DNA of 64,000 nucleotides from an uncultured Lachnospiraceae bacterium (GTDB lineage: Bacteria > Bacillota > Clostridia > Lachnospirales > Lachnospiraceae): contig CAKRJT010000002.1 in NCBI GenBank assembly GCA_934351925.1, positions 45,039-109,038 of the forward strand, given 5' to 3'. Under the pieces are notes generated by a model that saw only the letters and a program-made list of their open reading frames with translations, made no database searches and was not told the origin of the DNA. Below are positions 27,310 to 42,755 of the stretch, one piece after another (the first letter of the stretch is position 1; every line of letters starts with the position of its first letter). Position numbers and translations under genes: made by a program.

Positions 27310-28836
<1,527 letters not shown>

Positions 28837-28862: not shown

Positions 28863-29411
28863 CTACGAGAGCTGAATGTTATTGAGCTTCTTCGTAAGCT
28901 GTGCAAGCTTTGTCTTAATACTGGTATCCACAACTCTGTCCCCAATGCGGATGACCATGCCTCCAATGAGGCTCTTGTCTACGGAATAGTCCATCTCAAG
29001 CTTCTTAAAGCCTGTGGTGTCAAGGATTCTCTTCTCAACCGCCGCCTTCTGCCCGTCCGACAGCTCCATCGGAGCCGCCACATTCACTATGCCTATTTTG
29101 AGGTAGTCCTTTACGGCTGCGATAAAGTACTCGAGTATTCCCTGAATATCGTTCTGCCTGTCTTTCTCGACCGCAAGAACGATAAGCCCCGTGATATCCT
29201 TTCTCACGCGTGGCTCAAAGATGTTTTCCATAGTCTTTACCTTGTCGGTTTTACTTATTTTCGGGTTGTTCAGGAAATCCGCAAGTTCTCCGTTCTCCTT
29301 AAACGCCTCCAAAACAATCTGTACCTCATCAAGATATCCGGCAGCACTGCCGCTCTCGATGGCGAGCTCATAAAGAGCCTGTCCGTACGCTGATGCTGCT
29401 AATTTTGCCAT
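28863..29411 (-). CDS. atpH: F1 ATP synthase delta (OSCP) subunit (operon 1)
   Basis: 182 aa, OSCP-like (..LIGGMVIRIGDRVVDTSIKTKL..). It overlaps the atpF stop. Confidence 0.9.
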   Translation of the reverse strand: MAKLAASAYGQALYELAIESGSAAGYLDEVQIVLEAFKENGELADFLNNPKISKTDKVKTMENIFEPRVRKDITGLIVLAVEKDRQNDIQGILEYFIAAVKDYLKIGIVNVAAPMELSDGQKAAVEKRILDTTGFKKLEMDYSVDKSLIGGMVIRIGDRVVDTSIKTKLAQLTKKLNNIQLS

Positions 29412-29964: not shown

Positions 29965-30249
<285 letters not shown>

Positions 30250-36440: not shown

Positions 36441-36857
36441 TTAGTTTATCTCATGCTTCCCCACCTTGCGGTAGCGGTACACCGCTCTTGCAAGTGAAGC
36501 CTGCGATACATGGTACTCCTGAATGCTCTGCTTCTGGCGGAGCTGTTCCTGTGCACGCTCCATTGCGGCTTTAGCACGAACCTCATCGATGTCCTCAGGA
36601 CGCTCGGCAGTATCGACAATCATGGTCACACGATTGTTGGCTATGTATACGAAGCCAATGCCTACGACAGCATCTATATACTCGTCACTTCCCTCAGGCT
36701 TGAAACGGACGTCGCCGATAGTGGTGGCAATCGCCATATTCTGGTGATGTGCCATGATTGCTATCTCGCCGTCTAAGCCCGGAACTACAAGAATGTCTGC
36801 CTTACCGGAAAAGAACACCTTGTTGGAGGCTAATATTTTAAGATAAAATGAGCTCAT
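36441..36857 (-). CDS. atpC: F1 ATP synthase epsilon subunit (operon 2)
   Basis: 138 aa, with an epsilon beta-sandwich and a helical tail; last gene of operon 2. Confidence 0.88.
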   Translation of the reverse strand: MSSFYLKILASNKVFFSGKADILVVPGLDGEIAIMAHHQNMAIATTIGDVRFKPEGSDEYIDAVVGIGFVYIANNRVTMIVDTAERPEDIDEVRAKAAMERAQEQLRQKQSIQEYHVSQASLARAVYRYRKVGKHEIN

Positions 36858-36872
36858 CTTACCCCGCCTCCT

Positions 36873-38285
<1,413 letters not shown>

Positions 38286-38288
38286 TTA

Positions 38289-39203
38289 TTACATGACCTC
38301 CTTTCTGGCCTTTTTCTTCTTTTTCTGAGCCTTGGCACCGGCGATTACCTCTGTTATCTCCTGGGTAATCATCGACTGTCTGGCTCTGTTATACTCTATG
38401 GACAGATTACGAATCATCTCCGCTGCACTGTCATTAGCTACCTGCATGGCACTCATTCTGGCATTCTGCTCACTGCAGAAGGACTCCATAAGTGCTCCGT
38501 ATATATAGCCCATGATTACATCCGGTACAATATTGTTAAGAAGAGCATTCGGGGATGGCTGAAGCTCTATCTCCTCGTTGAATACTCCCTGTCTCTCCAT
38601 CTCATGCTGCATAGCCATGTCTCTCGTTATAGGCAGAAGATTAATCATATCAACCTCAGTCGTTATGCTTGATTTCATGTATGTATAGATAACATATACC
38701 TCATCAAGCTCTCCTTCCTTGAACTGCTCTACAACCTCCTCACAGATAATTCTGGCTCTGTGAAGTGAAGGATTCTGTGCGGTATAATGGAACTGCTCCG
38801 CAACCGGAATATTTTTCTTCTTAAAATACTGTCTTCCCAACTCACCAACCACGAAGAGCTTGTAGTTCTTGCACTGCTCAATCTCTTCCATCGCCTTTTT
38901 AAGAACATTGTGGTTGTATGCTCCCGCAAGACCTTTATCAGCCGTAACGACGATGAAGCCCTTTACACGGTCTTCCGGTGCTTTATTCGGTCTGACATCC
39001 ATATACTGGTTCTCGACATCAGGCAGATGCCTTACAACACGGGATACCATGTTACGCAGAGCGTTAAAGTAAGGCTCCGTCTCTTCAAGACTCTTCTTTG
39101 CCTTGCGAAGCTTCGTGGAGGATATCATGTACATAGCGTTAGTGATTTTCATGGTGTCCTGAATACTTTTCATTCGGCTTTGAATTTCACGAGCATTTGC
39201 CAT
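38289..39203 (-). CDS. atpG: F1 ATP synthase gamma subunit (operon 2) with a Lys-rich C-terminal extension
   Basis: The N-terminus is MANAREIQSRMKSIQDTMKITNAMYMIS. The C-terminus is ...ITQEITEVIAGAKAQKKKKKARKEVM. Confidence 0.92.
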   Translation of the reverse strand: MANAREIQSRMKSIQDTMKITNAMYMISSTKLRKAKKSLEETEPYFNALRNMVSRVVRHLPDVENQYMDVRPNKAPEDRVKGFIVVTADKGLAGAYNHNVLKKAMEEIEQCKNYKLFVVGELGRQYFKKKNIPVAEQFHYTAQNPSLHRARIICEEVVEQFKEGELDEVYVIYTYMKSSITTEVDMINLLPITRDMAMQHEMERQGVFNEEIELQPSPNALLNNIVPDVIMGYIYGALMESFCSEQNARMSAMQVANDSAAEMIRNLSIEYNRARQSMITQEITEVIAGAKAQKKKKKARKEVM

Positions 39204-39206
39204 GAC

Positions 39207-41234
39207 TTATCCCTCCTTAGCCATATATTCGTCCCTGAAGCTCTTAGCAGCCTCAACGATAGCCTTGTTGAGCTCATCGTCAAGCTTACCGCCGTTTTCT
39301 ATCTGAGTGATAATCTCCGGGCGGTCTGTCCTGATGTGCTCAAGAAGCTTCATCTGAAAATCCTTTACATTTTTAAGCGGAAGAGGAAGCATAACCTTGC
39401 CGTTGGCAGCGCAGAGTGTGATTACCTGCTCCGCTGTGCTGAGCGGTCTGCAAAGAGGCTGCTTTAACAGCTCCATGAGCGCATGTCCGTGCTGTAACTG
39501 CTCCTTAGTCGCGTTATCAAGGTCAGAAGCGAACTGTGTGAATACCTCCATCTCCCTGAACTGTGCGAGGTCGATACGGATACTTCCCGCTGCCTTCTTC
39601 ATCGCCTTAGTCTGGGCTGCACCACCAACTCGGGATACTGAAAGACCTACGTTAACCGCCGGTCTCATACCTGAGAAGAAGAGGTCACTCTCAAGGAATA
39701 TCTGTCCATCGGTGATGGAAATAACATTCGTAGGAATGTATGCAGATACATCGCCCGCCTGAGTCTCAATGATAGGAAGTGCAGTGATTGAACCGCCGCC
39801 CTGCTCATCGGAGAGTCTTGCCGAACGCTCAAGAAGTCTTGAGTGTAAGTAGAATACATCACCCGGATAAGCCTCACGTCCCGGTGAACGCTCAAGCAAA
39901 AGTGACAGTGCTCTGTAAGCTACCGCATGCTTGCTGAGGTCATCATATACGATAAGAACGTCCTTACCCTCATGCATGAAATACTCTGCCATAGCTGTTC
40001 CCGAATAAGGTGCTATGTACTGAAGAGGTGCCGGGTCGGATGCCGTAGCGGATACGATAATGGTGTAATCCATGGCATCATGCTGCTTTAAGGTATTTAC
40101 CAGCTTGGCGATTGTCGATGCCTTCTGTCCGATAGCGACATATACGCACACAACATCCTTGCCCTTCTGGTTTAAGATGGTATCGATGGCGATAGATGTC
40201 TTACCTGTCTGACGGTCGCCGATGATAAGCTCTCTCTGTCCACGTCCTATAGGGAACATGGAATCGATTGCAAGAATACCTGTCTCCATAGGTACCGAAA
40301 CCGACTTACGGTCTACAATAGATGGTGCAGGCTGCTCTATAGGACGGTATCCGTTTTCCTTAACAGGGCCGGCTCCGTCTATAGGTGCTCCGAGTGCATC
40401 GATAATTCTGCCAAGGAAGCCCTCGCCAACCGGTATACCGGCTCTCTTGCCTGTACGCGCAACTCTTGAGCCTTCCTTAATCTCTGTATCACGTCCGAAG
40501 AGGATACAGCCTATCTCGTCTTTTCTTACATCCTGAACCATACCCTTAACGCCACAGTCAAATATAACTATCTCACCGTAGGCCGCATGGTCAATTCCGT
40601 TGATATTGGCAATTCCGTCACCGACATAGCTTACCACACCGACTTCCTTGTCCTGAGCCTCGAGCTCGAAATTGTCAATCTCGCTCTTCAATATAGAAAT
40701 AATATTCTCTGTGCTGGCTGTCGCTCCGATATCCGCCTTGGCAAGCTGCTCCCTGAACTGCTTCATTCTGCCGTTGGTGCTCCAATCGAATACGTCGTTG
40801 CCCGCCTGAATGACAAAGCCGCCGCCGAGGGTCTTATCCTCCTCGAGCTCAAATGTAAACTCTGTTGTGTTATACTGCTTTGCCACGAAGTCCTTGATAC
40901 CCTGAAGCTGCTCATCAGTAGGTGCTGTCACATACTTGAGAGTAACCACGAACTCTCCCTTGCGCTCAGGAGCTGCCTCCCTGTACGCCTTAACTATGTC
41001 CTTCCACAGACCTGTGTCAGAATTGTCACACAGAAGCTTTAAAAAGTCTCTTATCTGTAGCGGAAAGACCTTCTCAATCACATTGTGCTTGGATGCAAGC
41101 GATATTGAAGGATTGGCAAATTCCTCTGCAATCTGCGGTACAGCAGTAAAGATGTCATCTGCCTGTCCCACTATGTTCGCTGCAATATTCAGTTCGCGCA
41201 ATGTCTTAGCATAATCTTTTGCTGTACTAATCAC
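39207..41234 (-). CDS. Fused F1 delta (OSCP) - alpha subunit, 675 aa
   Basis: A single ORF with a GTG start overlapping the atpF2 stop (GTGA). Residues ~1-170 are OSCP-like (..[29 protein letters not shown]). After the linker [11 protein letters not shown] comes a full alpha subunit ([14 protein letters not shown]...[18 protein letters not shown]...). Confidence 0.9.
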
Positions 41235-41716
41235 TTGTTCTCACCCGTCTTTGTCAAAAATTGGTTATAGAGTTCCCTGTCAGCAGCCTCGCCCTGTCCT
41301 GAAGCCACAACTTTAGCTGTAGCTGCAACGACAAGCTCCTCAATCTGATCCTTAGCCTGCTTGATGGTCTTCTCCTGTTCCTTAACTGCTTCTTTTCTCG
41401 CATCGTCCATAAGCTTATCTGCTGCTGTCTTTGCATCCGCAACGATTCTGTCGTACTCTGCTCCCGCCTTGACTCTCGCATCGCTTATAACTGCTGCCTT
41501 CTCTTCCTGTGCTCCGCTCAATGCCTGCTCATACTGTGCCTTAAGTGCAGCTGCATTGTCCTGAGTCGCCTTTGCATCCTCGTACTGCTTATTTATCTCA
41601 GCCTCGCGCTGTGCGATAATCTTCTTGACAGGCTTAAATAAAAGCTTACGAATGATTACATAGATGATAATCAGGTTGATAACGGTAAATAACAGATTAA
41701 TATCTATTCTTAACAT
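41231..41716 (-). CDS. atpF: Fo ATP synthase b subunit (operon 2)
   Basis: It has an N-terminal TM helix and a charged coiled coil; 161 aa. Confidence 0.88.
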
Positions 41717-41752
41717 GCTATCCTCTCCTTATCTTATATTTTTCTAACCTGA

Positions 41753-41971
41753 TTAACCAAGTAAGATGATGATAAGGATAGCTACAACGAAACCGTAAAT
41801 AGCAGTTGCCTCTGCAAGCGCACCACCTAAAAGTAAAAGCTTTGTTATCTTGCTCTCTGCCTCAGGCTGTCTAGCTACTGCCTCTGTTGCCTTACCTGCT
41901 GCGATACCGATACCGATACCGGCTCCTATACATGCTAATGCTGCAATTCCTGCTCCTAATGCAATTCCCAT
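41753..41971 (-). CDS. atpE: Fo ATP synthase c subunit, H+-type signature (operon 2)
   Basis: The start MGIALGAG at 41971 lies behind GGAGG. In [11 protein letters not shown], Ile replaces the Na+-site Gln. ALAEATAIY has E54 followed by Ala instead of Ser/Thr. Confidence 0.9.
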
Positions 41972-42009
41972 ATTTTCCTCCGTTCTGCCGTCTGGCGGCA
42001 TGTCAATAG
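41972..42009 (-). promoter_or_regulatory. GC-rich hairpin plus SD leader motif, copy 3 (atpB2-atpE2 intergenic)
   Basis: The minus strand reads CTATTGACATGCCGCCAGACGGCAGAACGGAGGAAAAT-ATG. The stem is TGCCG/CGGCA. Confidence 0.35.
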
Positions 42010-42062
42010 ATTATTAGATTTTGTCCTGCCTGCCGCAGTGACAGGCTTACATGTGCAGCCGC

Positions 42063-42755
42063 TTACTCTTCGACTGCTTCCTTAATATAAAGTGATGTCA
42101 AAAATACAAATACATATGCCTGGATTAAACCGTCAAAAATATCAAAGTAAAAACTGAATGGTACCGGCAGTACAACCGGAATTAACGACTTAAGCAGCTC
42201 CATAATAACAAACGCACCTAATACGTTACCAAAAAGTCGCATACAAAGTGACAACGGCTTGATGAATAACTCAAGAATGTTAATCGGCGTTACAATAGCC
42301 ATCGGCTGCGTAAAGCTCTTAAGCCAGCCCTTAAAGCCCTTCCTGTGTATTCCCGCGTACTGGACGAGCACAATACTCATAACGGCAAGCGCTGCTGTTA
42401 CATTGAGATCCTTCGTCGGCGGCTTAACTCCGCACAGACCAATCAGGTTGGCAAAGCCTATGTACAGAAGCACTGAACACAGATATGGCACGAAGGCTTT
42501 TCCTTCTTCCCCGGTCATTCCGATGACAAACTTCTCAAGCCAGCCTACAATGGATTCGGCAACAAGCTGTCTCTTGCTCACATTCTTAACCTTCAGCCCT
42601 CTTGTGAGGAAAATACACAGTACCAAAAGAATAGCCATGATAACCCATGTAATCACCGTCGACTCGGCAATCGGAATATTAAAGCTTCCGATATGAATGG
42701 TAAAGACTGTCTCACAGTTGAGCTCTTCCATTATCTTTTCCTTCAAATCTCCCAT
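42063..42755 (-). CDS. atpB: Fo ATP synthase a subunit (operon 2)
   Basis: Contains LSLCMRLFGNVLGA (the conserved Arg helix). The start lies behind AAGGAG. Confidence 0.92.
   Translation of the reverse strand: MGDLKEKIMEELNCETVFTIHIGSFNIPIAESTVITWVIMAILLVLCIFLTRGLKVKNVSKRQLVAESIVGWLEKFVIGMTGEEGKAFVPYLCSVLLYIGFANLIGLCGVKPPTKDLNVTAALAVMSIVLVQYAGIHRKGFKGWLKSFTQPMAIVTPINILELFIKPLSLCMRLFGNVLGAFVIMELLKSLIPVVLPVPFSFYFDIFDGLIQAYVFVFLTSLYIKEAVEE

Follow-up and report, generated by a model that had tools for sequence, protein, structure and literature searches.

An atpH~atpA fusion gene, in which the delta subunit of ATP synthase is joined to the alpha subunit within one open reading frame (ORF) encoding 675 residues, is present in the second ATP synthase operon (operon 2) of an uncultured Lachnospiraceae bacterium (assembly GCA_934351925.1, contig CAKRJT010000002.1). 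The window that was analysed is a stretch of 64,000 nucleotides of this contig, and the coordinates given below refer to it. The gene is a genuine fusion that has been maintained by selection. From the comparisons described here we infer that it is translated as a single ~74-kDa chain, that delta and alpha are present in the stoichiometry (delta-alpha)3, and that the peripheral stalk docks on the fused delta. The likely product of the operon is an F1 head of the composition (delta-alpha)3 beta3 gamma epsilon, in which the anchor of the stalk is tethered covalently. Three deltas per head are favored because no conserved start codon, Shine-Dalgarno (SD) site or cleavage motif is found at the junction of the two parts, because in some genomes the fused gene is the sole source of both subunits, and because relatives that retain delta's C-terminal domain alone have nothing but the covalent link by which the stalk could be attached.

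The ion-to-ATP ratio, which is fundamental to cellular energetics, is set by how many stator stalks and a-subunits the enzyme has. To our knowledge, F-type enzymes were all believed before 2025 to have one stalk and one a-subunit. An engineered delta(C-domain)-alpha enzyme has since departed from this, and a single natural enzyme with two stalks, that of Chloroflexus, is now on record. Natural delta-alpha fusions have been pointed out in print just in passing, and we know of no characterized natural member. The full-length fusion is a natural test of whether the N-terminal domain (N-domain) of delta limits the number of stalks. Gut Lachnospiraceae carry the gene very commonly, and cultured carriers, namely Waltera species, are available.

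Architecture of the Fused Protein

The fusion ORF is held by the minus strand; the plus strand at 39207-41234 has stop codons throughout. Translation starts at a GTG that overlaps the TGA stop of the preceding atpF in the sequence GTGA, which is a typical coupled junction. When the 675-residue protein was compared with Pfam, OSCP (PF00213) matched residues 9-164 with 83.4 bits against a cut-off of 22.3. The match spans profile positions 13-172 of 172, and thus both domains of delta. The three alpha families follow in order: ATP-synt_ab_N at residues 197-262, ATP-synt_ab at 319-534 and ATP-synt_ab_C at 541-666. The NCBIfam profile for atpA, TIGR00962, is matched over positions 4-502 of 503 by residues 175-671 (766 bits; cut-off 484.45), and the P-loop GDRQTGKT can be read in the translation of the alpha part. 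Comparison with the separate delta (182 aa) and alpha (501 aa) of operon 1, the canonical ATP synthase operon of the same window, places the end of the fused delta at about AKADIG and residue 1 of alpha at the first A of ATAST.

A whole-chain structure was predicted with AlphaFold2 (AF2) from a shallow alignment of 46 sequences. Its alpha part was unusable, and interpretation was confined to delta and the linker. The delta part has helices at residues 2-14, 19-31, 33-40, 46-56, 59-70 and 74-86, with predicted local distance difference test (pLDDT) values of 73-87 over the N-domain. These six helices are followed by the C-terminal domain (C-domain) at 96-166, a segment without secondary structure at 167-174, and the alpha helix at 175-187; pLDDT over the delta blocks is 63-87. 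Taken together, the profile matches, the alignment and the model point to two essentially full-length proteins joined with about eight residues devoid of secondary structure between them. The C-domain of delta is the part that docks the b2 stalk in solved enzymes. In the fusion this domain aligns with the delta C-domains of PDB entries 9JC1 and 6N2Y.

These results agree with the original prediction, which was made from the letters of the sequence and had described a complete delta joined by a short linker to a full-length alpha in one 675-residue ORF, with no mention of the strand. It had also held that the second operon has no separate atpH. None is present among the genes of operon 2, and a separate atpH does exist in operon 1.

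Occurrence of Delta-Alpha Fusions

A search with residues 1-260 revealed clusters of proteins 667-679 aa long, more than 100 in number, that have the identical layout of four Pfam domains. Identity over these 260 N-terminal residues, which comprise delta and the start of alpha, extends down to 69%. The clusters come from many independent assemblies and are annotated just as "subunit alpha." When 41 related genomes were compared, five congeners and four further genera proved to have an unbroken fused frame. In a scan of species-representative genomes the fusion was found in the isolates Waltera acetigignens, W. intestinalis WCA3-601-WT-6H and W. hominis CLA-AA-H183, and also in metagenome-assembled genomes (MAGs) labelled Acetatifactor; the genus of the window consists of uncultured Lachnospiraceae MAGs.

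The family was surveyed with a junction-spanning query against one genome from each of 400 Lachnospiraceae genera, and a subset of 28 full-length and 22 C-domain-only genes was checked by sequence. Full-length delta-alpha genes are present in ~30 of the 400 genera, with open frames of 669-711 aa and one of 758. Alpha fused to the delta C-domain alone is found in ~46 genera (579-650 aa), and a b-delta(C)-alpha triple fusion in one. Ordinary separate delta and alpha genes are present in ~60 genera. In ~8 others delta and alpha lie in one frame and are parted by stop codons alone, for example ...LIRR*DEM-GAISS and ...KLTWR*T*V-SSINS, and the sequences indicate that a single base change would be enough to fuse such genes. 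The three fusion classes are also present in a library of cluster representatives at 50% identity. A b'-delta(C)-alpha form is abundant among MAGs of the Oscillospiraceae type, where its operons run a-c-b-[b'-delta(C)-alpha]-gamma-beta-epsilon.

In five genomes belonging to five genera and 99-100% complete (G425, G307, G250, G309 and G311), the full-length fused ORF is the only match to alpha (E<=1e-40) and the only match to OSCP, so every alpha and every delta there must come from the fused gene.

Several variants of the fusion were noted. Two genes of Oscillospiraceae-type MAGs (L019, 7001-9262; L020, 7001-9235) encode b'-delta(C-domain)-alpha proteins of 753 and 744 aa and adjoin separate b genes (157 and 142 aa); this kind occurs in more than 100 protein clusters, annotated just as alpha. 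In one Lachnospiraceae genus (L088, G117:C33:101100-105200, and L109) the order is a (245 aa)-c (86 aa)-[b-delta(C-domain)-alpha, 778 aa]-gamma, there is no separate b gene in the operon, and the sole b arm is fused to alpha. Genome G356 has two fused genes, a full-length one (673-aa frame) and a C-domain-only one (608-aa frame), at C46:10620-11177 and C175:2645-3193. The delta(C-domain)-alpha gene of L101 (G103:C40:34800-38100) has an unusually long linker of ~33 residues with a Met exactly at the start of alpha, and is in frame with the upstream b gene, beyond the b stop codon.

Selection on the Fused Delta and Loss of its N-Domain

The ratio of non-synonymous to synonymous substitution (dN/dS) was determined in the two clades with enough close pairs. 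It was 0.02-0.07 for the N-domain, 0.045-0.086 for the C-domain and ~0.03 for alpha, values that indicate strong purifying selection on the delta part of the fusion. At matched divergence of alpha (70-80% identity), N-domain identity was 36% among fused deltas compared to 31% among unfused type-2 deltas, so the fused N-domain is not relaxed. The N-domain of the window protein is ~10 residues shorter than the canonical form and still has six predicted helices. There are 105 residues ahead of the C-domain Pro in the window fusion, 116 in type-1 deltas and 110 in unfused type-2 deltas. The shortening was considered as a trait specific to the fusion and was rejected, since a shortening of ~10 residues is common to unfused type-2 deltas.

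Synonymous divergence differs along the gene. In the 5' third, which codes for the N-domain (window 40971-41234 and orthologues L001-L006 and L022-L045), it was 0.19-0.21 compared to 0.34-0.62 in the rest of the gene, and this was seen in two separate clades. Constraint on mRNA structure or on coupling to atpF may be responsible.

A maximum-likelihood tree was built from 77 alpha domains (IQ-TREE, LG+C20+F+G4). In it the window protein pairs with that of a congener (100/99), and Waltera is next. One clade of 11 genera is full-length throughout. Full-length and C-domain-only forms are interleaved in the tree, with 13 changes on the best tree, at least 4-5 of which are forced by well-supported branches. 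The N-domain is kept in 14 of 14 free type-2 deltas, and among the genes examined it has been lost only where delta is fused. Re-acquisition of the domain is unlikely. The simplest reading of these sequences would be repeated loss of the N-domain once delta had become covalently attached, as would be expected if the tether made the main job of the domain, holding delta on the alpha N-termini, redundant. When the tree is rooted on type-1 alpha, the unfused type-2 genes form one nested clade, a topology compatible with either fusion or fission having come first.

At three loci, L061 (G410), L085 (G043) and L089 (G203), there are N-terminal extensions of 140, 130 and 114 aa that are Arg/Gly-rich and do not resemble the N-terminus of delta. 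They may represent N-domain coding sequence read out of frame, and hence snapshots of N-domain loss.

Is the Canonical Stoichiometry Restored?

A canonical alpha3 beta3 delta1 enzyme with a single stalk might be restored after transcription, either by internal initiation, for instance at Met157, or by proteolysis of the linker. The evidence from the junction makes this improbable. The region from -15 to +12 codons around alpha residue 1 was compared in 54 fused genes from different genera, and no conserved start codon or SD site was found at the junction among them. There is no in-frame ATG, GTG or TTG across this span in 17 of the 54. In the remaining genes the best SD energies equal the background of in-frame start-like codons inside alpha: only 11% of the junction candidates reach -6 kcal/mol or lower and none reaches -8, far below the true atpG starts of the same loci, 78% of which reach -6 and 50% of which reach -8. 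In the window, just two in-frame start-like codons are present at the junction, Met157 and a TTG at Leu182, and the latter is TTA in a 96%-identical congener. Met157, within GRMKQF, is an ATG with a weak GGAG 13 nt upstream (window 40764-40790; dG -5.6), formed by the codons GAT TGG AGC of the conserved D-W-S. The same context is found in the genus of the window and in Waltera (dG -5.6 to -5.9), as well as in a few other genera, and it speaks for internal initiation there; in most genera, however, the residue at this position is I, L or V. A weak test with 19 fused and 6 unfused genes showed neither GGAG nor start-capable codons to be enriched specifically in the fused genes at the DWS/GR[M] site, and selection for an internal start at this site was rejected on that small sample. 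With respect to proteolysis, the predicted lack of structure in the linker would favor cleavage, but linker sequences vary among genera and no shared cleavage motif was found in them. Furthermore, a delta fragment released from the C-domain-only relatives would be useless, since it lacks the N-domain for binding to the head.

The absence of a convincing internal SD and start at the junction had been part of the original prediction and is upheld by the weak GGAG at Met157 and by the failure of the congener to keep the TTG at residue 182. That prediction left three options: three deltas per complex, internal initiation or proteolysis. The 54 junctions, the linkers, the C-domain-only relatives and the sole-source genomes favor the first of these; the other two are less favored, and are possible for the window organism.

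One delta per head could also be attained by mixed assembly, if one delta-alpha from operon 2 were combined with two plain alphas from operon 1, or if the free delta of operon 1 served operon 2. Only ~10 kb away, the same strand encodes a free delta and a plain alpha that shares 57% identity with its fused counterpart. Nevertheless, mixed assembly is very unlikely. The other subunits of operon 2, namely a, c, b, gamma, beta and epsilon, are all encoded within the operon itself, the c subunits of the two operons differ in predicted coupling ion, and mixing is not a general solution, as the five genomes in which the fused ORF is the sole alpha and OSCP demonstrate. It is scarcely conceivable that the fusion is an error of assembly or sequencing, or a recent, functionless loss of the atpH stop on the way to a pseudogene. 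In favor of this reading, 0-15 codons separate the stop of delta from the start of alpha in unfused relatives, where the two often share a frame, and one base change could fuse them. Against this stand the identical architecture in many independent assemblies and isolates, the presence of the fusion in ~30 genera, with a clade of 11 that is uniformly full-length, and dN/dS of 0.02-0.09 across the delta part. An assembly frameshift, a possibility that the original prediction had wished to see excluded, is ruled out by the recurrence of the architecture in independent assemblies and isolate genomes.

Some points weigh against a head with three deltas. The whole-chain AF2 model is poor (mean pLDDT 51). 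The Met157 context, shared by the window's genus and Waltera, could give rise to a minor internal product, an alpha with a 14-residue leader. Operon 1 provides the window genome with both a plain alpha and a free delta. We know of no demonstrated packing of three delta N-domains on one head, and the N-domain has been argued to occupy the three-fold axis (Ueno et al., PMC12229609).

Proposed Assembly and Relation to Known Enzymes

If the head does contain three deltas, the fused gene would be translated as one ~74-kDa polypeptide, and each alpha would bear its own delta on a tether of ~8 residues attached to the alpha N-terminal helix. The covalent link would reinforce or replace the non-covalent binding of delta to the alpha N-termini by which the b2 peripheral stalk is normally secured on the head. 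The b2 stalk encoded directly upstream would dock on at least one of the delta C-domains. The other two deltas would either be unoccupied or recruit further b2-a stator units, as in an enzyme engineered from Bacillus PS3, giving one to three stalks.

In the engineered PS3 delta(C-domain)-alpha enzyme as many as three b2 stalks and three a-subunits are assembled (Ueno et al., Nat Commun 2025, PMC12229609). Each of the three delta C-domains binds b2 in the canonical way, the H+/ATP ratio is 5.8 compared to 3.0, and ATP is made at half the proton-motive force (pmf) (PMC12229609). According to the authors, the delta N-domain lies on the pseudo-three-fold axis and limits the stalks to one, and its deletion permits more (PMC12229609). 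A PDB sequence search with the N-terminal 225 residues of the window protein gave chain I of 9JC1 as the best-scoring chain (E 1.4e-16). This chain of 580 aa, present in three copies, consists of PS3 delta 105-178, a short Gly/Ser linker (...GGSGGS...) and alpha. The alignment covers residues 103-225 with a single gap of one residue at the junction, which is one residue shorter in 9JC1. Between the DWS motif of delta and residue 1 of alpha the median distance is 21 residues in the full-length, C-domain-only and b-fused classes, and the window protein has the same value. By analogy, the delta C-domains are probably held on each alpha as in 9JC1, because this spacing matches the engineered design within one residue.

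In both proteins the delta C-domain runs in frame into the alpha N-terminus and the alpha N-terminal helix is kept. There are three delta C-domains per head in 9JC1, as there would be in the window head. The engineered protein is without delta residues 2-104, whereas the window protein keeps a constrained N-domain of ~88 residues with six predicted helices. Up to three b2 stalks and three a-subunits are proven for the engineered enzyme. The original prediction saw in the fusion a stoichiometry problem for assembly of the stalk. The question is real; as an obstacle it is weakened by the engineered delta(C-domain)-alpha enzyme, which assembles well with three delta C-domains and gains stalks.

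Natural N-domain-less fusions have been noted in Acidaminococcus fermentans (D2RLW6) and in UniProt entries G4Q3K6 and A0A1I2C5T3 (PMC12229609, discussion, Suppl. Fig. 9). A survey mentions natural delta-alpha fusions in one sentence, the wording of which covers the full-length kind (Mulkidjanian, Kuchevskiy, Dibrova, bioRxiv 10.64898/2026.10.01.756066). The window fusion is therefore a full-length example of a natural kind already mentioned in print. Like the named examples, it is an in-frame delta-alpha in an atp operon without a separate atpH; the named examples are N-domain-less and come from Negativicutes, whereas the window protein is full-length and comes from Lachnospiraceae. Neither PMC12229609 nor the preprint contains an analysis of full-length fusions or of their frequency, internal starts or selection.

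Two other systems bear comparison. The F1Fo of Chloroflexus aurantiacus is a natural delta2 b4 a2 enzyme with two stalks (PNAS 2025, PMC12002316). Its delta N-domains are shortened (85 aa, four helices) and form a dimer that shares the top of F1 (PMC12002316), so N-domains need not restrict an enzyme to one stalk. More than one delta per head is common to that enzyme and to the head proposed here. The Chloroflexus delta is free and its N-domain has four helices, whereas delta is fused in the window protein and its N-domain has six predicted helices. In the mycobacterial b-delta protein (atpH of Mycobacterium; PDB 7JG5 family) a stalk component is likewise fused to the subunit encoded next to it in the operon. 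There delta is carried on a b-like arm in a 1:1 ratio and no question of copy number arises, whereas in the window b is a separate protein of 161 aa whose gene ends at the start codon of the fusion, and delta is placed on a subunit present in three copies. The fused delta is not a stand-alone subunit, as neither a stop nor a conserved start lies between delta and alpha in the window.

The Number of Stalks

It is possible, but on balance doubtful, that the window enzyme has more than one stalk. Only tentatively can the Lachnospiraceae enzymes with a full-length delta-alpha, along with their relatives of the C-domain-only and b-fused classes, be proposed as natural multi-stalk F-type ATPases. 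In such an enzyme a b2-a stator would be recruited by each of two or three delta C-domains, and the three N-domains would be packed against one another or splayed out on top of the head. In favor of multiple stalks are the geometry, which matches that of the engineered enzyme, the ready assembly of extra stalks in the latter without re-tuned expression, and the frequent interchange of full-length and N-domain-less forms in otherwise similar operons. Against them are the retention of a strongly constrained six-helix N-domain, ~10 residues shorter than canonical as it is in unfused type-2 deltas, and the lack of a demonstrated packing of three N-domains.

If multiple stalks were present, H+/ATP would rise two- to three-fold, and the enzyme would work at very low pmf or pump more protons per ATP in a fermenting cell. 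The rule of one stalk per F-type enzyme, imposed by the delta N-domain, would be overturned, about one genus in five of a dominant gut family would have such enzymes, and estimates of energy yield for many gut and rumen fermenters would need revision. If instead there is a single stalk with two idle deltas, the enzyme would illustrate the tolerance of F1 assembly and a stage at which covalent tethering precedes loss of the domain.

Operon Context

The genes of operon 2 are in the order a-c-b-[delta~alpha]-gamma-beta-epsilon on the minus strand, at 36441-42755 (Table 1).

Table 1. Coordinates of the fusion gene, its parts and the other ATP synthase genes discussed.
Feature	Coordinates	Strand	Description	Evidence
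atpH~atpA fusion ORF	39207-41234	minus	675 aa, ~74 kDa	ORF, Pfam, NCBIfam
Delta N-terminal domain	40971-41234	minus	residues 1-88, predicted six-helix bundle	Pfam OSCP, AF2, dN/dS
Delta C-terminal domain	40737-40955	minus	residues 94-166, predicted four strands and two helices; FDWS...GR motif conserved	Pfam, AF2, alignment to 9JC1 and 6N2Y
Linker	40713-40736	minus	residues 167-174, KADIGATA, between last delta helix and alpha N-terminal helix	alignment, AF2
Complete alpha subunit	39207-40712	minus	residues 175-675 and stop, including N-terminal helix and P-loop	TIGR00962
atpB	42063-42755	minus	a subunit, 230 aa
atpE	41753-42001	minus	c subunit, 82 aa	sequence read directly
atpF	41231-41716	minus	b subunit, 161 aa; separate gene coupled translationally to the fusion
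atpG	38289-39203	minus	gamma, 304 aa; Lys-rich C-terminal tail of 15 residues
atpD	36873-38285	minus	beta, 470 aa
atpC	36441-36857	minus	epsilon, 138 aa
Operon 1 atpH	28863-29411	minus	182 aa; canonical, comparator
Operon 1 atpA	27310-28815	minus	501 aa; canonical, comparator

The c subunit of operon 2 reads GIGIG / AEATAIY and is without the Gln and the Ser/Thr of the Na+ site. On this sequence, the operon 2 enzyme is probably an H+-coupled F-type ATPase. The c subunit of operon 1 (29965-30225) has the Na+-type signature Q...ETTGLY, which that of operon 2 lacks.

RnfD was found in the window genome (C34:8302-9195), which is 99.9% complete, and a search of this genome for Complex1_49kDa, as in an Ech-type hydrogenase, gave no match. 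An Ech-driven proton circuit was rejected as the partner of operon 2 for this reason, RnfD alone being present. The operon 2 enzyme may run mainly as a proton-pumping ATPase, because Rnf is found without Ech and the c subunit is without the Na+ signature. No evident system for generating a proton gradient on which operon 2 could draw was seen in the window genome.

The gamma subunit ends in a Lys/Arg-rich tail that follows ITQEITEVIxG (window 38289-38333 and loci L110-L129). The tail is located where gamma reaches the top of the head beneath delta, and its length differs by operon class. In this small sample of related lineages it has 5 residues in type-1 operons, 7-10 in unfused type-2 operons, 13-21 in operons with a fused delta-alpha and 6-11 in those with a triple fusion.

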